Of a stretch of DNA of 17,161 nt, positions 9,242 to 9,835 are shown piece by piece; the stretch's first letter is position 1, and each line of letters opens with the position of its first letter. Origin of the DNA: a virus; the IMG/VR virus record IMGVR_UViG_3300005077_000946. The stretch is one strand, 5' to 3'. The position numbers and the translations under genes are program-made. The notes under the pieces were generated by a model. It saw only the letters and a program-made list of their open reading frames with translations. It did no database searches and was not told the DNA's origin.

Positions 9242-9326
9242 AGTGGGGTAGTGTAATTGGTAACATTTTAGGCTCATAACCTAAAGACACCGAGTGCTTG
9301 TCCAAGTTCGAATCTTGGCCCCGCAA
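9242..9326 (+). tRNA. Atypical tRNA, anticodon CAU (Met/Ile type) with a 17-nt variable arm and an A1xA72 mismatch
   Basis: D-stem GTGT/ACAT. Perfect anticodon stem TTAGG/CCTAA with loop CTCATAA. Variable region AGACACCGAGTGCTTGT. T-arm CCAAG-TTCGAAT-CTTGG. Acceptor AGTGGGG/CCCCGCA. Confidence 0.45.
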
Positions 9327-9329
9327 TAT

Positions 9330-9406
9330 GCTCGAATAGCCCAATTTTGGTAGAGGCACTACGTTGAGATCGTAGTTATGTGTGGGTTCGAATCCCTCTT
9401 CGAGCA
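9330..9406 (+). tRNA. tRNA with Leu anticodon GAG, class-I (short variable arm) architecture
   Basis: Acceptor GCTCGAA/TTCGAGC. D-arm TAGCCCAATTTTGGTAGAGGC (Leu-type D-loop). Anticodon stem CTACG/CGTAG with loop TTGAGAT. T-loop TTCGAAT. A73. Confidence 0.55.
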
Positions 9407-9478
9407 CTAAAATTATTTAAAGCTGAATGTATATTACTGATTACTGTTGTATGTTCAAACTGTCATAGAGAAATTCAT

Positions 9479-9560
9479 GCCGGTGTAGCCCAACTGGAAT
9501 TGAGGCGGTAGTTTTAGAAACTACGACATAGTGAGGGTTCGAATCCCTCCACCGGTACCA
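9479..9560 (+). tRNA. tRNA with Leu anticodon UAG, class-I-like, encoded CCA
   Basis: Acceptor GCCGGTG/CACCGGT. Anticodon stem GTAGT/ACTAC with loop TTTAGAA. 8-nt variable loop. T-arm GAGGG-TTCGAAT-CCCTC. A73 followed by CCA. Confidence 0.55.
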
Positions 9561-9656
9561 ATTATTTTTGTTGTGTGAGTGCTCCCACAATTACTACTGT
9601 AAAAAAGGTCTGGGAGTAGGTAGACTGTAGAAAAGAAATTCCCCACGCAACTATCA

Positions 9657-9730
9657 TGCCTCTATAGCTTAATGCAAAGCACTCACCTCGTAAGTGAGTA
9701 GATATCGGTTCATATCCGATTAGGGGCTCC
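9657..9730 (+). tRNA. tRNA-Thr (anticodon CGU), encoded CCA
   Basis: Acceptor GCCTCTA/TAGGGGC. Short D-loop (AATGCA, no GG). Anticodon stem CTCAC/GTGAG with loop CTCGTAA. T-arm ATCGG-TTCATAT-CCGAT. Confidence 0.55.
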
Positions 9731-9748
9731 AAAAACAGATATATTACA

Positions 9749-9835
9749 TGATCTCGTCGCCAAGTTGGTAAGGCACCAGACTGCAAATCTGGTAAAAGCT
9801 CAAAAAGAGTCGTGGGTTCGAATCCCACCGAGATC
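9749..9835 (+). tRNA. Atypical tRNA, anticodon GCA (Cys) with a 19-nt variable arm and U73
   Basis: Perfect acceptor GATCTCG/CGAGATC. D-arm GCC-AAGTTGGTAA-GGC (Ser-like). Anticodon stem CCAGA/TCTGG with loop CTGCAAA. Variable arm TAAAAGCTCAAAAAGAGTC. T-arm GTGGG-TTCGAAT-CCCAC. Confidence 0.5.

Follow-up and report, generated by a model that had tools for sequence, protein, structure and literature searches.

Probable initiator-type and cysteine tRNAs with an added variable-arm hairpin in a phage tRNA cluster

Introduction

The textbook long-variable-arm tRNAs of bacteria and phages are those for Leu, Ser, Tyr and Sec only. A 17,161-nucleotide stretch of viral DNA (IMG/VR record IMGVR_UViG_3300005077_000946; hereafter the window) carries two long-arm tRNAs with the anticodons CAU and GCA, which raises the question of what these genes are. 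The initial annotation had left two answers standing: anticodon mutants of Ser or Leu tRNAs that would mistranslate AUG or UGY codons, or novel isoacceptor architectures. Here we find that the two genes are most likely not Ser/Leu-derived mistranslating mutants and are probably the phage's initiator-type Met tRNA and its Cys tRNA, each with an added hairpin and each, to judge from sequence, normally charged and decoding.

Two tRNA genes with enlarged variable regions

The two genes and their variable regions are located as follows.

9242..9326, + strand: initiator-like tRNA(CAU), 85 nt, no encoded CCA (ARAGORN, Rfam, family alignment)
9285..9301, + strand: variable region of the CAU tRNA, 17 nt, AGACACCGAGTGCTTGT (read from the sequence)
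9750..9836, + strand: tRNA-Cys(GCA), 87 nt, no encoded CCA (ARAGORN, Rfam, RNAfold, D-arm comparison)
9793..9811, + strand: variable region of the Cys tRNA, 19 nt, TAAAAGCTCAAAAAGAGTC (read from the sequence)

Both are real tRNA genes. ARAGORN calls a tRNA(CAT) at 9241-9327 and a tRNA(GCA) at 9750-9836, and in a search of the whole window Rfam RF00005 matches the former at 9242-9326 (52.3 bits, E 6e-9) and the latter at 9750-9836 (63.3 bits, E 6e-12), both above the gathering score of 29 bits. For the CAU tRNA, the extent, 17-nt variable region and unpaired 1-72 position first described are borne out by ARAGORN, Rfam and the sequence itself. For the GCA tRNA, the anticodon, U73 and 19-nt variable region stand, while the original coordinates (9749-9835) were one base off. 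Neither a shifted anticodon nor a variable region of standard length emerged: the Rfam alignments keep both anticodons and put the extra bases in the variable region. An intron or another anticodon position is rejected on the same grounds, with posterior '*' in nearly every aligned column of both tRNAs. Each gene retains four intact standard stems, G18G19, the T54-loop TTCGAAT and, in an anticodon loop of 7 nt, U33 and A37.

The CAU tRNA combines an initiator-type acceptor stem with a class-I D arm. Its acceptor stem (9242-9248 / 9319-9325) contains G2:C71, U3·G70 and an unpaired A1·A72, in which A9242 faces A9325 (Rfam sign 'v'), and is followed by discriminator A73 (A9326). The D stem GTGT/ACAT has 4 bp and the D loop 8 nt, which is not a class-II D arm. 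The anticodon CAT lies at 9275-9277 on the stem TTAGG/CCTAA, where A29:U41, G30:C40 and G31:C39 amount to two of the three initiator G:C pairs. Within the variable region, C9288-A9289-C9290 pairs with G9294-T9295-G9296 in a 3-bp hairpin with loop CGA; AGA (3 nt) forms the 5′ linker and CTTGT (5 nt) the 3′ linker.

We took the features of the E. coli initiator as our comparison. The usual bacterial initiator D-stem pair is A11:U24, and this feature is absent from the CAU tRNA, which has U11:A24. The formyltransferase determinants of initiator tRNA are G2:C71 and C3:G70; the CAU tRNA has the first, with U·G at 3:70. Natural initiators with two anticodon-stem G:C pairs exist, and exact copies of the CAU anticodon arm, TTAGGCTCATAACCTAA, occur in at least 120 viral contigs. 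In the majority the arm belongs to a normal-length initiator-type tRNA of the CGCGGGG...CCCCGCAAC(CA) type; the two-G:C-pair arm is found mainly in otherwise canonical phage initiator-type tRNAs, which have A11:U24. With its hairpin removed, the CAU tRNA gave no match at E ≤ 10 in a BLAST search against E. coli genomes. A tRNA-Ile2 (lysidine) identity is unlikely given the unpaired 1:72, and is also disfavoured by the crAss relatives, in which tRNA-Ile(UAU) occurs alongside a separate CAU tRNA of the elongator type. CAU together with A73 would be read by methionyl-tRNA synthetase, the unpaired 1:72, G2:C71 and pyrimidine3:G70 would allow recognition by the formyltransferase and exclusion from EF-Tu, and G30:C40 with G31:C39 would serve selection in the P site.

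The GCA tRNA is built on a standard tRNA-Cys backbone. Its acceptor stem is a perfect 7 bp (GATCTCG/CGAGATC, with A:U at 2:71 and U:A at 3:70), its discriminator is U73 (T9836) and its anticodon lies at 9783-9785. The D arm, GCCAAGTTGGTAAGGC, reads GCC-A AGTTGGTA A-GGC, with a 3-bp stem, A13·A22 and G15. It had been described as Ser-like, and the resemblance is there, but the arm is of the standard tRNA-Cys type and matches ordinary short tRNA-Cys exactly; in L269 the exact window arm sits in a normal-length GCA tRNA. The motif GCCAAGT(N)GGTAAGGC followed by CTGCAAA is present in at least 120 viral contigs and 103 distinct tRNAs, of which 101 have a normal variable loop (4-6 nt) and the remaining two, unmatched by the T-loop search pattern, are nevertheless of normal length. 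With the anticodon masked, the best matches of the GCA tRNA are canonical tRNA-Cys. We discounted a ranking by D-arm distance, since the set of short tRNA-Cys had been gathered with the same D-arm pattern.

RNAfold gives the GCA tRNA a cloverleaf plus a variable-arm hairpin (-30.5 kcal/mol). The hairpin has 4 bp (9798-9801 / 9807-9810, GCTC/GAGT: G·U, C-G, U-A, C-G) and an AAAAA loop, with a 5-nt 5′ linker (TAAAA) and a single 3′ linker base (C9811). Folded alone, the variable region reaches -3.0 kcal/mol, a value matched by 0.5% of shuffles. As the last variable base, C9811 would make 15:48 a G:C pair, unlike the G15:G48 of E. coli. The major CysRS identity elements are the GCA anticodon and discriminator U73 (PMC5389517), and their presence on a standard Cys D arm would suit the tRNA to cysteinyl-tRNA synthetase. 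Because the features that the partner enzymes use are kept in both genes, one would expect the CAU tRNA to be charged with Met, formylated and read at AUG starts, and the GCA tRNA to be charged with Cys and to decode UGY correctly. The inserted hairpin gives each tRNA a class-II outline.

The window tRNA set comprises 29 genes, in which the GCA tRNA is the sole Cys gene and the CAU tRNA the sole initiator-type gene seen. All four Leu tRNAs have lost their long arm, and the tRNA-Ser (10536-10625) has G73, G2:C71, A3:U70 and linkers of 1 nt on both the 5′ and the 3′ side of its arm. Rfam scores of the other window tRNAs run from 44 to 70.7 bits, bar one aberrant gene at 32.2 bits. CCA is encoded in many neighbouring tRNAs and absent from the CAU and GCA genes. 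An aberrant tRNA-like gene at 16148-16233 has an 11-nt 'anticodon loop', and another at 15477-15547, found by Rfam only, has an odd D arm; the latter was considered as a second, normal-length GCA tRNA and rejected, its Rfam alignment giving anticodon UGC (Ala) and G3·U70. A DNA search of GenBank phages with the window returned matches only to single tRNAs and no close relative. Exact-protein look-ups of two window ORFs returned no match, the vault-like ORF has no IMG/VR relatives, those of the HD protein are at most 44% identical and not syntenic, and the best phage protein matches to the window are at most 28% identical.

A hairpin-bearing CAU tRNA family in phages

The CAU tRNA belongs to a family that recurs in phages. 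We delimited it by the D arm TAGTGTAAT..AACAT together with GGCTCATAACC; members occur in 53 IMG/VR contigs and, among phage records, in crAss001, PhiCrAssBcn22 and bajarodcaudo virus 1. Some of these contigs come from very large phages, and hairpin-bearing members occur from crAss-like genomes of ~100 kb up to contigs of 221-553 kb. Identity positions are conserved. Of 22 distinct members, 17 have a mismatch at 1:72, five have a weak A-U or U-A pair there and none has G-C; A73 is present in 20. G2 is invariant in an 18-sequence alignment. Throughout both sub-alignments G2:C71, G30:C40, G31:C39 and U11:A24 are constant and 3:70 is C-G or U·G; some members have all three anticodon-stem G:C pairs.

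The added hairpin covaries. Variable regions measure 16-20 nt in 19/22 distinct members. In one sub-alignment (7 members) the three hairpin pairs are 95% paired, two of them with changes on both sides; in the second the variable-stem pairs are 100% paired and both-sided changes affect 3/4. Compensatory variants include CAGT/ACTG, CGGT/ACCG, CACT/AGTG and GGAT/GTCC. Covariation is likewise seen in the acceptor, anticodon and T helices, and the D stem is invariant. The variable-region hairpin is not junk; phages that have diverged retain its fold. It is also dispensable, since three of the 22 members have a normal short loop in its place.

The genomic company of the family bears on its role. Phages of the crAss type have one other CAU tRNA, with a fully paired acceptor stem, a different anticodon arm and no initiator-type features, so the long-arm tRNA is the sole initiator-type gene in those stretches; some additionally carry tRNA-Ile(UAU). 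In L207 and L235 a canonical-type initiator lies directly beside the family member, and the role of the family may therefore be specialised rather than simply that of 'the' initiator.

Long-arm tRNA-Cys in phages and tRNA arrays

Long-arm tRNA-Cys recur in viral contigs and in cellular tRNA arrays. We found 56 other distinct viral examples with a search pattern that included GCA, and 55 of them have U73. Where the variable region is at least 13 nt, 34/46 fold better than 95% of shuffles, with mostly GNRA loops among those that fold well; some AT-rich regions of 11-12 nt form no hairpin, and hairpin sequence, length and loop are highly variable. The search gave 74 matches in 2.9 million viral contigs versus 52, of which ~28 are valid, in the 596 Gb that 185,579 bacterial and archaeal genomes comprise; nearly all the valid cases lie within dense tRNA arrays. 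The per-base frequency looks much higher in the viral contigs, a set whose size is known by contig number and not in bases.

Long arms on class-I tRNAs tend to occur together. Other class-I tRNAs are long in 38/375 cases at long-arm-Cys loci versus 7/409 at canonical-Cys loci (odds ratio 6.5, p = 3e-7), and one metagenome tRNA array has long-arm Cys, long-arm initiator-like Met and long-arm Asn tRNAs adjoining. In bacterial arrays 24/29 Cys tRNAs are long versus 3/235 other class-I tRNAs. Unselected phage loci show a background of ~2% long class-I tRNAs, spread over many isotypes.

The long-arm tRNA-Cys probably have several independent origins. Many in other phages have a D arm identical or nearly identical to the Ser type, which makes a Ser origin plausible for some of them, and with the anticodon masked the best match is a tRNA-Ser in 33/84.

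Alternative explanations

One alternative is that the long arm leads to charging by SerRS or LeuRS, giving mistranslating or dual-identity tRNAs that insert Ser or Leu at UGY or AUG codons, either as a by-product of anticodon mutation in a Ser/Leu tRNA or as deliberate alteration of the proteome. SerRS ignores the anticodon and relies on the long arm as its main mark, and a single base change turns GCU (Ser) into GCA (Cys). The Ser-type D arms and masked Ser matches of other phages also favour this reading, as does the 1-nt 3′ linker that the window Cys hairpin shares with the window tRNA-Ser. Mukai et al. (PMC5389517) treat long-arm tRNAs with G73 or U73 and a non-Ser anticodon (allo-tRNAs) as likely Ser acceptors, and since they regard a long arm with G73 or U73 as compatible with serine identity, some serylation of the GCA tRNA is possible. 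We nevertheless consider mistranslation improbable, because both window backbones are of the cognate type. In the CAU gene the D stem is 4 bp and the D loop 8 nt, the acceptor stem is of the initiator type and the anticodon arm is shared with initiators; the GCA gene has an exact Cys D arm and masked best matches to canonical tRNA-Cys. These features do not support the proposal that either gene is a Ser/Leu anticodon mutant. The near-universal U73 of long-arm tRNA-Cys is what selection for recognition by CysRS predicts. Relative to the tRNA-Ser of the window (G73, G2:C71, A3:U70), the Cys tRNA has A2:U71 and U3:A70, and the 5′ linkers of the two hairpins are 3-5 nt long versus 1 nt. More generally, Ser-type arm geometry and G73 are missing from both tRNAs (A73 and U73), and G2:C71 occurs in the CAU tRNA only. 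As the sole Cys and sole initiator-type genes of the set, the two would be in ordinary use.

The hairpin could also be a neutral embellishment without a function of its own. On this view fast-evolving phage tRNA genes would gain insertions in the variable region, the only part of a tRNA to tolerate them, provided merely that they fold into a compact hairpin; this is possible, though we lean against it. Class-II tRNAs attest that the ribosome accepts long variable arms, and the variability of the Cys hairpins, the hairpin-free AT-rich regions, the three CAU-family members with a short loop and the ~2% background in unselected loci all fit neutrality. They have to be set against the persistence of the CAU-family hairpin, with compensatory changes, from crAss-like genomes to the largest contigs, the clustering of long arms by genome, their strong concentration on Cys in bacterial arrays and their seemingly much higher per-base occurrence in viral contigs. 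Finally, the genes might be non-functional or non-translational tRNA-like sequences, such as decaying duplicates, nuclease decoys or regulatory RNAs. The aberrant tRNA-like genes at 16148-16233 and 15477-15547 and the unencoded CCA lend this some colour, and irregular tRNAs can be charged yet unused in translation (Mukai et al., PMC5389517). Intact stems and conserved loop nucleotides, Rfam scores within the range of the other window tRNAs, conserved identity positions and family covariation in the acceptor, anticodon, variable and T helices make it very improbable.

We thus return to a probable initiator-type tRNA and a probable tRNA-Cys that carry an extra hairpin; cognate charging, initiator function and a role for the hairpin are what we infer. 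The hairpin protrudes from the tRNA core, and so its likeliest effect would be on the shape presented to proteins beyond the synthetase and the ribosome. Candidates are tRNA-cleaving defence nucleases of the host, host enzymes that modify the variable loop, and phage enzymes that tell phage from host tRNAs. By tagging the tRNA with a distinct shape, the hairpin may change how such tRNA-binding proteins recognise it, perhaps the defence nucleases among them, although a part in defence evasion is pure conjecture. A bolder version, which we think rather unlikely, is that phages and mobile tRNA arrays recurrently use the hairpin as an adaptive strategy, hiding class-I tRNAs (above all the initiator and Cys) from the immune nucleases that cleave tRNA in the host, or from toxins, or sheltering them from phage enzymes during the destruction of host tRNAs. 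Charging and decoding would stay cognate, and the window phage, crAss001 and CcrPW would all be users. More radically, part of the long-arm tRNA-Cys may derive from tRNA-Ser (GCU to GCA, G73 to U73) and have kept dual Ser/Cys charging.

Initiator-type and Cys tRNAs with a conserved extra hairpin are widespread in phages, beyond the textbook long-arm set, and the long-arm Cys variant extends to bacterial tRNA arrays. If the hairpin alters how nucleases, modification enzymes or other factors see a tRNA, overall shape would be a new axis along which phage tRNAs contend with defences that target tRNA. In annotation pipelines such genes are either overlooked or entered simply as tRNA-Met or tRNA-Cys. 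That an extra arm is tolerated by natural class-I tRNAs is also relevant to the engineering of orthogonal tRNAs.

Comparison with known systems

Both window tRNAs resemble class-II Ser/Leu/Tyr tRNAs in having stem-loop-forming variable regions of more than 10 nt. They differ in that anticodon, discriminator and acceptor identity elements match fMet and Cys, the D arm of the CAU tRNA is class-I, and the variable arms have short stems (3-4 bp) and long 5′ linkers (3-5 nt). The initial suggestion of novel isoacceptor architectures is the one supported, as each gene falls in a phage lineage that recurs and that combines a cognate-type tRNA with a hairpin in the variable arm. With bacterial tRNA(fMet) (for example E. 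coli metZWV/metY) and its normal-length phage copies, the CAU tRNA shares CAU in the loop CUCAUAA, A73, the lack of a Watson-Crick 1:72, G2:C71, pyrimidine3:G70, the acceptor GGGG/CCCC run, G30:C40, G31:C39 and the TTCGAAT T loop. It departs from tRNA(fMet) in its 17-nt hairpin variable region (versus 5 nt), A1·A72 (versus C1·A72), U11:A24 (versus A11:U24), A29:U41 (versus the third G:C) and a different D arm, GTGT/ACAT. With canonical bacterial and phage tRNA-Cys (D arm GCCAAGTGGTAAGGC), the GCA tRNA shares A13·A22, G15, the loop CUGCAAA, U73 and 7/5 acceptor/T helices, and the canonical tRNA-Cys of L266 has the same acceptor 5′ strand, GATCTCG. It differs in its 19-nt variable region with a 4-bp hairpin (versus 4-6 nt) and in C9 (versus A9).

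Allo-tRNAs and selC* tRNA-Cys also join a long variable arm to non-Ser/Leu/Tyr anticodons, and some occur in phages; selC* tRNAs have GCA (or UCA) and U73 and are charged by CysRS (Mukai et al. 2017, PMC5389517). In these tRNAs the acceptor/T helices are 8/4 or 9/3, the anticodon and D stems long and the D arms Sec-like (PMC5389517), whereas each window tRNA follows the plain 7/5 layout from end to end and its anticodon stem measures 5 bp; membership in that group is rejected on this architecture. A possible functional parallel is offered by the tRNA-Tyr of phage T5, which escapes retron-Eco7/Septu PtuAB: the variable loop is the site of nuclease cleavage, and the altered variable region of the T5 tRNA was shown experimentally to confer resistance (PMC11555353, PMC13096335). 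Here too a phage-encoded tRNA has a variable region unlike that of the host tRNA. The T5 tRNA is class-II with an existing arm altered, whereas in the window an arm has been added to class-I tRNAs.

In a full-text literature search that covered subscription journals thinly, we did not find long-arm initiator or Cys tRNAs of phages described. Counterparts include genes of cultured, experimentally tractable phages. The tRNA-Met crAss001_t23 of the crAss-like gut phage crAss001 (MH675552.1, 5721-5807; 87 nt, annotated in GenBank) is a member of the CAU family, with homologues in PhiCrAssBcn22/23, bajarodcaudo virus 1 and ~50 IMG/VR contigs; GenBank has such genes as 'tRNA-Met' only, or unannotated. 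The window CAU tRNA is 75-77% identical to crAss001_t23 and its homologues over the full length, and has the same D arm, acceptor-stem type, anticodon-arm core and variable hairpin starting AGA. The variable region of crAss001_t23 measures 20 nt and its stem CAGT/ACTG 4-5 bp, with C1·A72 in the acceptor; the window tRNA has 17 nt, CAC/GTG and A1·A72. For Cys, the annotated 85-nt tRNA-Cys of Caulobacter phage CcrPW (MH588545.1, 140602-140686) is of the same kind as that of the window. Other long-arm tRNA-Cys of phages and arrays likewise have GCA, U73, usually a hairpin in a variable region of 11-22 nt and, in phages, a place in tRNA clusters. In many of them the D arm is of the Ser/Tyr type (TG GCCGAGNGGTTGAAGGC), the hairpin loop is GNRA and the 3′ linker is 3 nt long; the window tRNA-Cys is set apart by its Cys-type D arm, AAAAA loop and 1-nt 3′ linker.

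Two tRNA Genes with Long Variable Regions

The window contains 28 tRNA genes by ARAGORN, all on the + strand, and 26 by the Rfam tRNA model (gathering score, 29). Two of them, with anticodons CAU and GCA, had been singled out in the initial annotation for long variable regions, and ARAGORN, Rfam, and direct reading of the sequence confirm both:

9241-9327, + strand: tRNA(CAT), ARAGORN
9242-9326, + strand: tRNA(CAT), Rfam, 52.3 bits
9750-9836, + strand: tRNA(GCA), ARAGORN and Rfam, 63.3 bits

The GCA gene exists as first described but was placed one base off. Both tRNAs align completely, at both ends, to the 71-position covariance model, which upholds the anticodon positions originally assigned and shows that the additional bases are inserted in the variable region. 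In the CAU tRNA this region is 17 nt long (9285-9301), A1 faces A72, and the discriminator is A73. The acceptor stem of the GCA tRNA is a perfect 7 bp, and its discriminator is U73. Its variable region, 19 nt long (9793-9811), forms a 4-bp hairpin; the full fold of this tRNA is a cloverleaf plus this hairpin (-30.5 kcal/mol).

Identity of the CAU tRNA

Bacterial initiator tRNAs lack a strong 1:72 pair and carry G2:C71, C3:G70, and A73, features that underlie formylation and EF-Tu exclusion, and are also marked by G:C pairs at the base of the anticodon stem. The anticodon arm of the CAU tRNA (TTAGGCTCATAACCTAA) has exact matches in at least 120 viral contigs, and most of these, among the matches listed, hold tRNAs of normal length and of bacterial initiator type (CGCGGGG...CCCCGCAAC(CA)). 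Full-length BLAST matches among GenBank phages, 75–77% identical, came from bajarodcaudo virus 1 and from Bacteroides phages PhiCrAssBcn22/23. The matches in crAss001 were partial; its 87-nt homologue is annotated solely as "tRNA-Met". ARAGORN predicts CAU tRNAs of 85–88 nt in these phages. A pattern combining the shared D and anticodon arms (TAGTGTAAT..AACAT....GGCTCATAACC) recovered 53 further IMG/VR contigs, some of 221–553 kb. Among 22 distinct sequences of this CAU family, position 1:72 is mismatched in 17, a weak A-U/U-A pair in 5, and G-C in none; A73 is present in 20, and the variable region is 16–20 nt in 19 and a normal short loop in 3. G2 is invariant in an 18-sequence alignment, G2:C71, G30:C40, and G31:C39 are constant in both subtype sub-alignments, and 3:70 is C-G or U·G throughout both.

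Since these conserved positions are the ones that define bacterial initiator tRNA, the CAU tRNA appears to be of the initiator type, possibly with a specialized role. We keep some reserve because the family has U11:A24 rather than the canonical A11:U24, the canonical third G:C pair of the anticodon stem is absent from the window tRNA, and two viral contigs have an adjoining canonical initiator. In these contigs (L207, 1055-1218; L235, 9098-9350) a canonical-type initiator tRNA stands in tandem with a GTGT-D-arm initiator-like tRNA, 6 nt apart in L207, so some phages have two different initiator-type tRNAs. A tRNA-Ile2 reading is opposed by the crAss-type phages, where initiator-type features are missing from the one other CAU tRNA; tRNA-Ile(UAU) is present as well in some of them. 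In two further viral contigs (L087, ~7854; L161, ~3173) initiator-type genes are split by unrelated sequence, after the anticodon arm or inside the T arm; introns, insertions, and integration junctions are possible explanations.

Identity of the GCA tRNA

The D arm of the GCA tRNA (GCCAAGTTGGTAAGGC) had been called Ser-like; it does resemble one, but its type is that of an ordinary tRNA-Cys. The pattern GCCAAGT(N)GGTAAGGC followed by CTGCAAA gave at least 120 matches in viral contigs, and those listed include at least 103 distinct tRNAs of normal length, with a variable loop measured at 4–6 nt in 101 of 103. One such short tRNA-Cys (contig L269) has a D arm identical to that of the window tRNA. 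With the anticodon masked, the best global matches of the GCA tRNA are canonical tRNA-Cys, notwithstanding the gap penalty for the hairpin. Initiator-type positions in the CAU tRNA, and the tRNA-Cys D arm and masked matches in the GCA tRNA, leave the proposal of Ser/Leu anticodon mutants unsupported for both genes. The other suggestion, novel isoacceptor architectures, gains support from a recurrent long-arm CAU family and long-arm tRNA-Cys.

Long-Arm tRNA-Cys in Other Genomes

The pattern AGGC-N6-CTGCAAA plus a long spacer and T loop matched 74 viral contigs. From these came 56 distinct, well-formed tRNAs; their variable regions measure 11–22 nt, and 55 have U73. Among the 46 variable regions of at least 13 nt, 34 outfold 95% of shuffles, and 26 loops are GNRA tetraloops (GAAA, GTAA, GAGA, GCAA). 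The cultured Caulobacter phage CcrPW provides an example, an annotated 85-nt tRNA-Cys. Across 185,579 bacteria and archaea (one genome per species) the pattern gave 52 matches, ~28 of them valid and nearly all within dense arrays of 7–29 tRNA genes per 8 kb. A metagenome scan with the window's exact GCA-tRNA D-arm type plus a long spacer found one array holding long-arm Cys, long-arm initiator-like Met (C1·U72), and long-arm Asn together.

Many long-arm tRNA-Cys (GCA, U73) in viral contigs L378-L450 (e.g., L389, L378, L385, L405) have a D arm of the Ser/Tyr type (TG GCCGAGNGGTTGAAGGC), together with hairpins that look Ser-like, ACCCGAAAGGG among them. Some long-arm tRNA-Cys D arms in other phages are identical to that of the window's own tRNA-Ser, and with the anticodon masked 33/84 long-arm tRNA-Cys match tRNA-Ser best. 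These cases suggest either descent from tRNA-Ser by identity switch or D-arm convergence given a long arm; the switch is a live possibility for them, not for the window GCA tRNA.

Long Arms Across Isotypes

Hairpin-bearing class I tRNAs (normally short in the variable loop) occur occasionally in the gathered phage loci for Lys, Asn, Thr, Val, Ile, Pro, Arg, Glu, Gln, and His. They cluster by genome: other class I tRNAs are long in 38/375 cases in long-arm-Cys loci vs. 7/409 in canonical-Cys loci (odds ratio 6.5, p = 3e-7), and in 15/223 in CAU-family loci vs. 6/283 in canonical initiator loci (p = 0.013). Within bacterial arrays, long arms are nearly confined to Cys (24/29 Cys vs. 3/235 other class I tRNAs). 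As the loci were collected by pattern and are no census, these percentages are only indicative.

Leu tRNAs are normally class II. The window has four:

9330-9407, + strand: tRNA-Leu
9479-9560, + strand: tRNA-Leu
10637-10713, + strand: tRNA-Leu
15003-15081, + strand: tRNA-Leu

These (GAG, TAG, CAA, TAA) are 77–82 nt long with variable regions of 5–8 nt and A73, so that Leu is class-I-shaped whereas fMet and Cys gained an arm. The tRNA-Leu(TAA) of crAss001 is also short (78–79 nt), as are ~1/4 to 1/3 of tRNA-Leu genes in sampled phage loci.

Other Genes of the Window Phage

No close relative of the phage turned up in the searched collections. Its tRNA set resembles those of crAss-like and very large phages, which hints weakly at a Bacteroidota host. 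Other features are

3875-6337: 820-aa ORF, Major Vault Protein shoulder (E 1e-27) and vault repeat domains
10073-10579: HNH homing-endonuclease ORF within the tRNA cluster, 3′ end overlapping tRNA-Ser (10536)
10747-12085: HD phosphohydrolase and weak peptidyl-tRNA-hydrolase-2-like ORF, after the HNH ORF
13094-13170, + strand: tRNA with anticodon CTA (amber suppressor; "Pyl" in ARAGORN), Rfam 63.1 bits
15477-15547: tRNA-Ala(UGC)-like gene, Rfam 32.2 bits, barely over the gathering score, missed by ARAGORN
16148-16233, + strand: tRNA-like gene, Rfam 26.6 bits, under the gathering score, 2-base anticodon in ARAGORN

The CTA tRNA suggests that some part of the genome uses TAG as a sense codon; treating TAG in this way extends 2/17 standard-code reading frames of at least 100 codons and otherwise adds just short new frames. 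The Ala-like gene has G3·U70, A73, and an aberrant D arm. In the gene at 16148-16233 the acceptor, D, and T arms are well formed and CCA is encoded, but the "anticodon" stem has 4 bp and closes an 11-nt loop. The vault-type fold is typical of eukaryotes and unusual for a phage; the ORF has no PHROG family and, by seed search, no IMG/VR relatives. The HNH, HD, and peptidyl-tRNA-hydrolase-2-like ORFs possibly form a tRNA-maintenance module.

Charging, Decoding, and the Hairpin

Both tRNAs appear to retain the features by which their normal enzymes recognize them, and conservation of these features across the families makes cognate charging and normal decoding the likeliest reading. Partial serylation of the GCA tRNA has some plausibility: Mukai et al. 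(PMC5389517) consider long-armed tRNAs with either G73 or U73 compatible with SerRS, this tRNA has U73, and its hairpin has a Ser-like 3′ linker of 1 nt. Conservation of U73 speaks against serine charging as the selected function.

Covariation supports a variable-arm stem in the CAU family. The window subtype has three pairs, 95% paired, with changes on both sides in 2/3; the crAss001 subtype has four, 100% paired, with changes on both sides in 3/4 (variants CAGT/ACTG, CGGT/ACCG, CACT/AGTG, and GGAT/GTCC). Judged from such sequence patterns, the hairpin is apparently a maintained structure. A serious rival is neutral origin, an insertion tolerated only if compact, consistent with the absence of the hairpin from three CAU-family members and with certain long variable regions that are unstructured. 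A maintained hairpin, protruding from the core, could obstruct or divert proteins that recognize tRNAs by their shape; a part for the variable region in phage–host conflict has precedent.

Comparison with Known Systems

Sequence comparison supports the CAU and GCA identities well, and members of both families already have plainly named GenBank entries (tRNA-Met in crAss001, tRNA-Cys in CcrPW). A full-text literature search of incomplete coverage found no description of phage initiator or Cys tRNAs with long arms. The nearest described oddities are allo-tRNAs and selC* tRNA-Cys (PMC5389517), whose acceptor/T architecture is 8/4 or 9/3 (PMC5389517), in contrast to 7/5 in the window CAU and GCA tRNAs.
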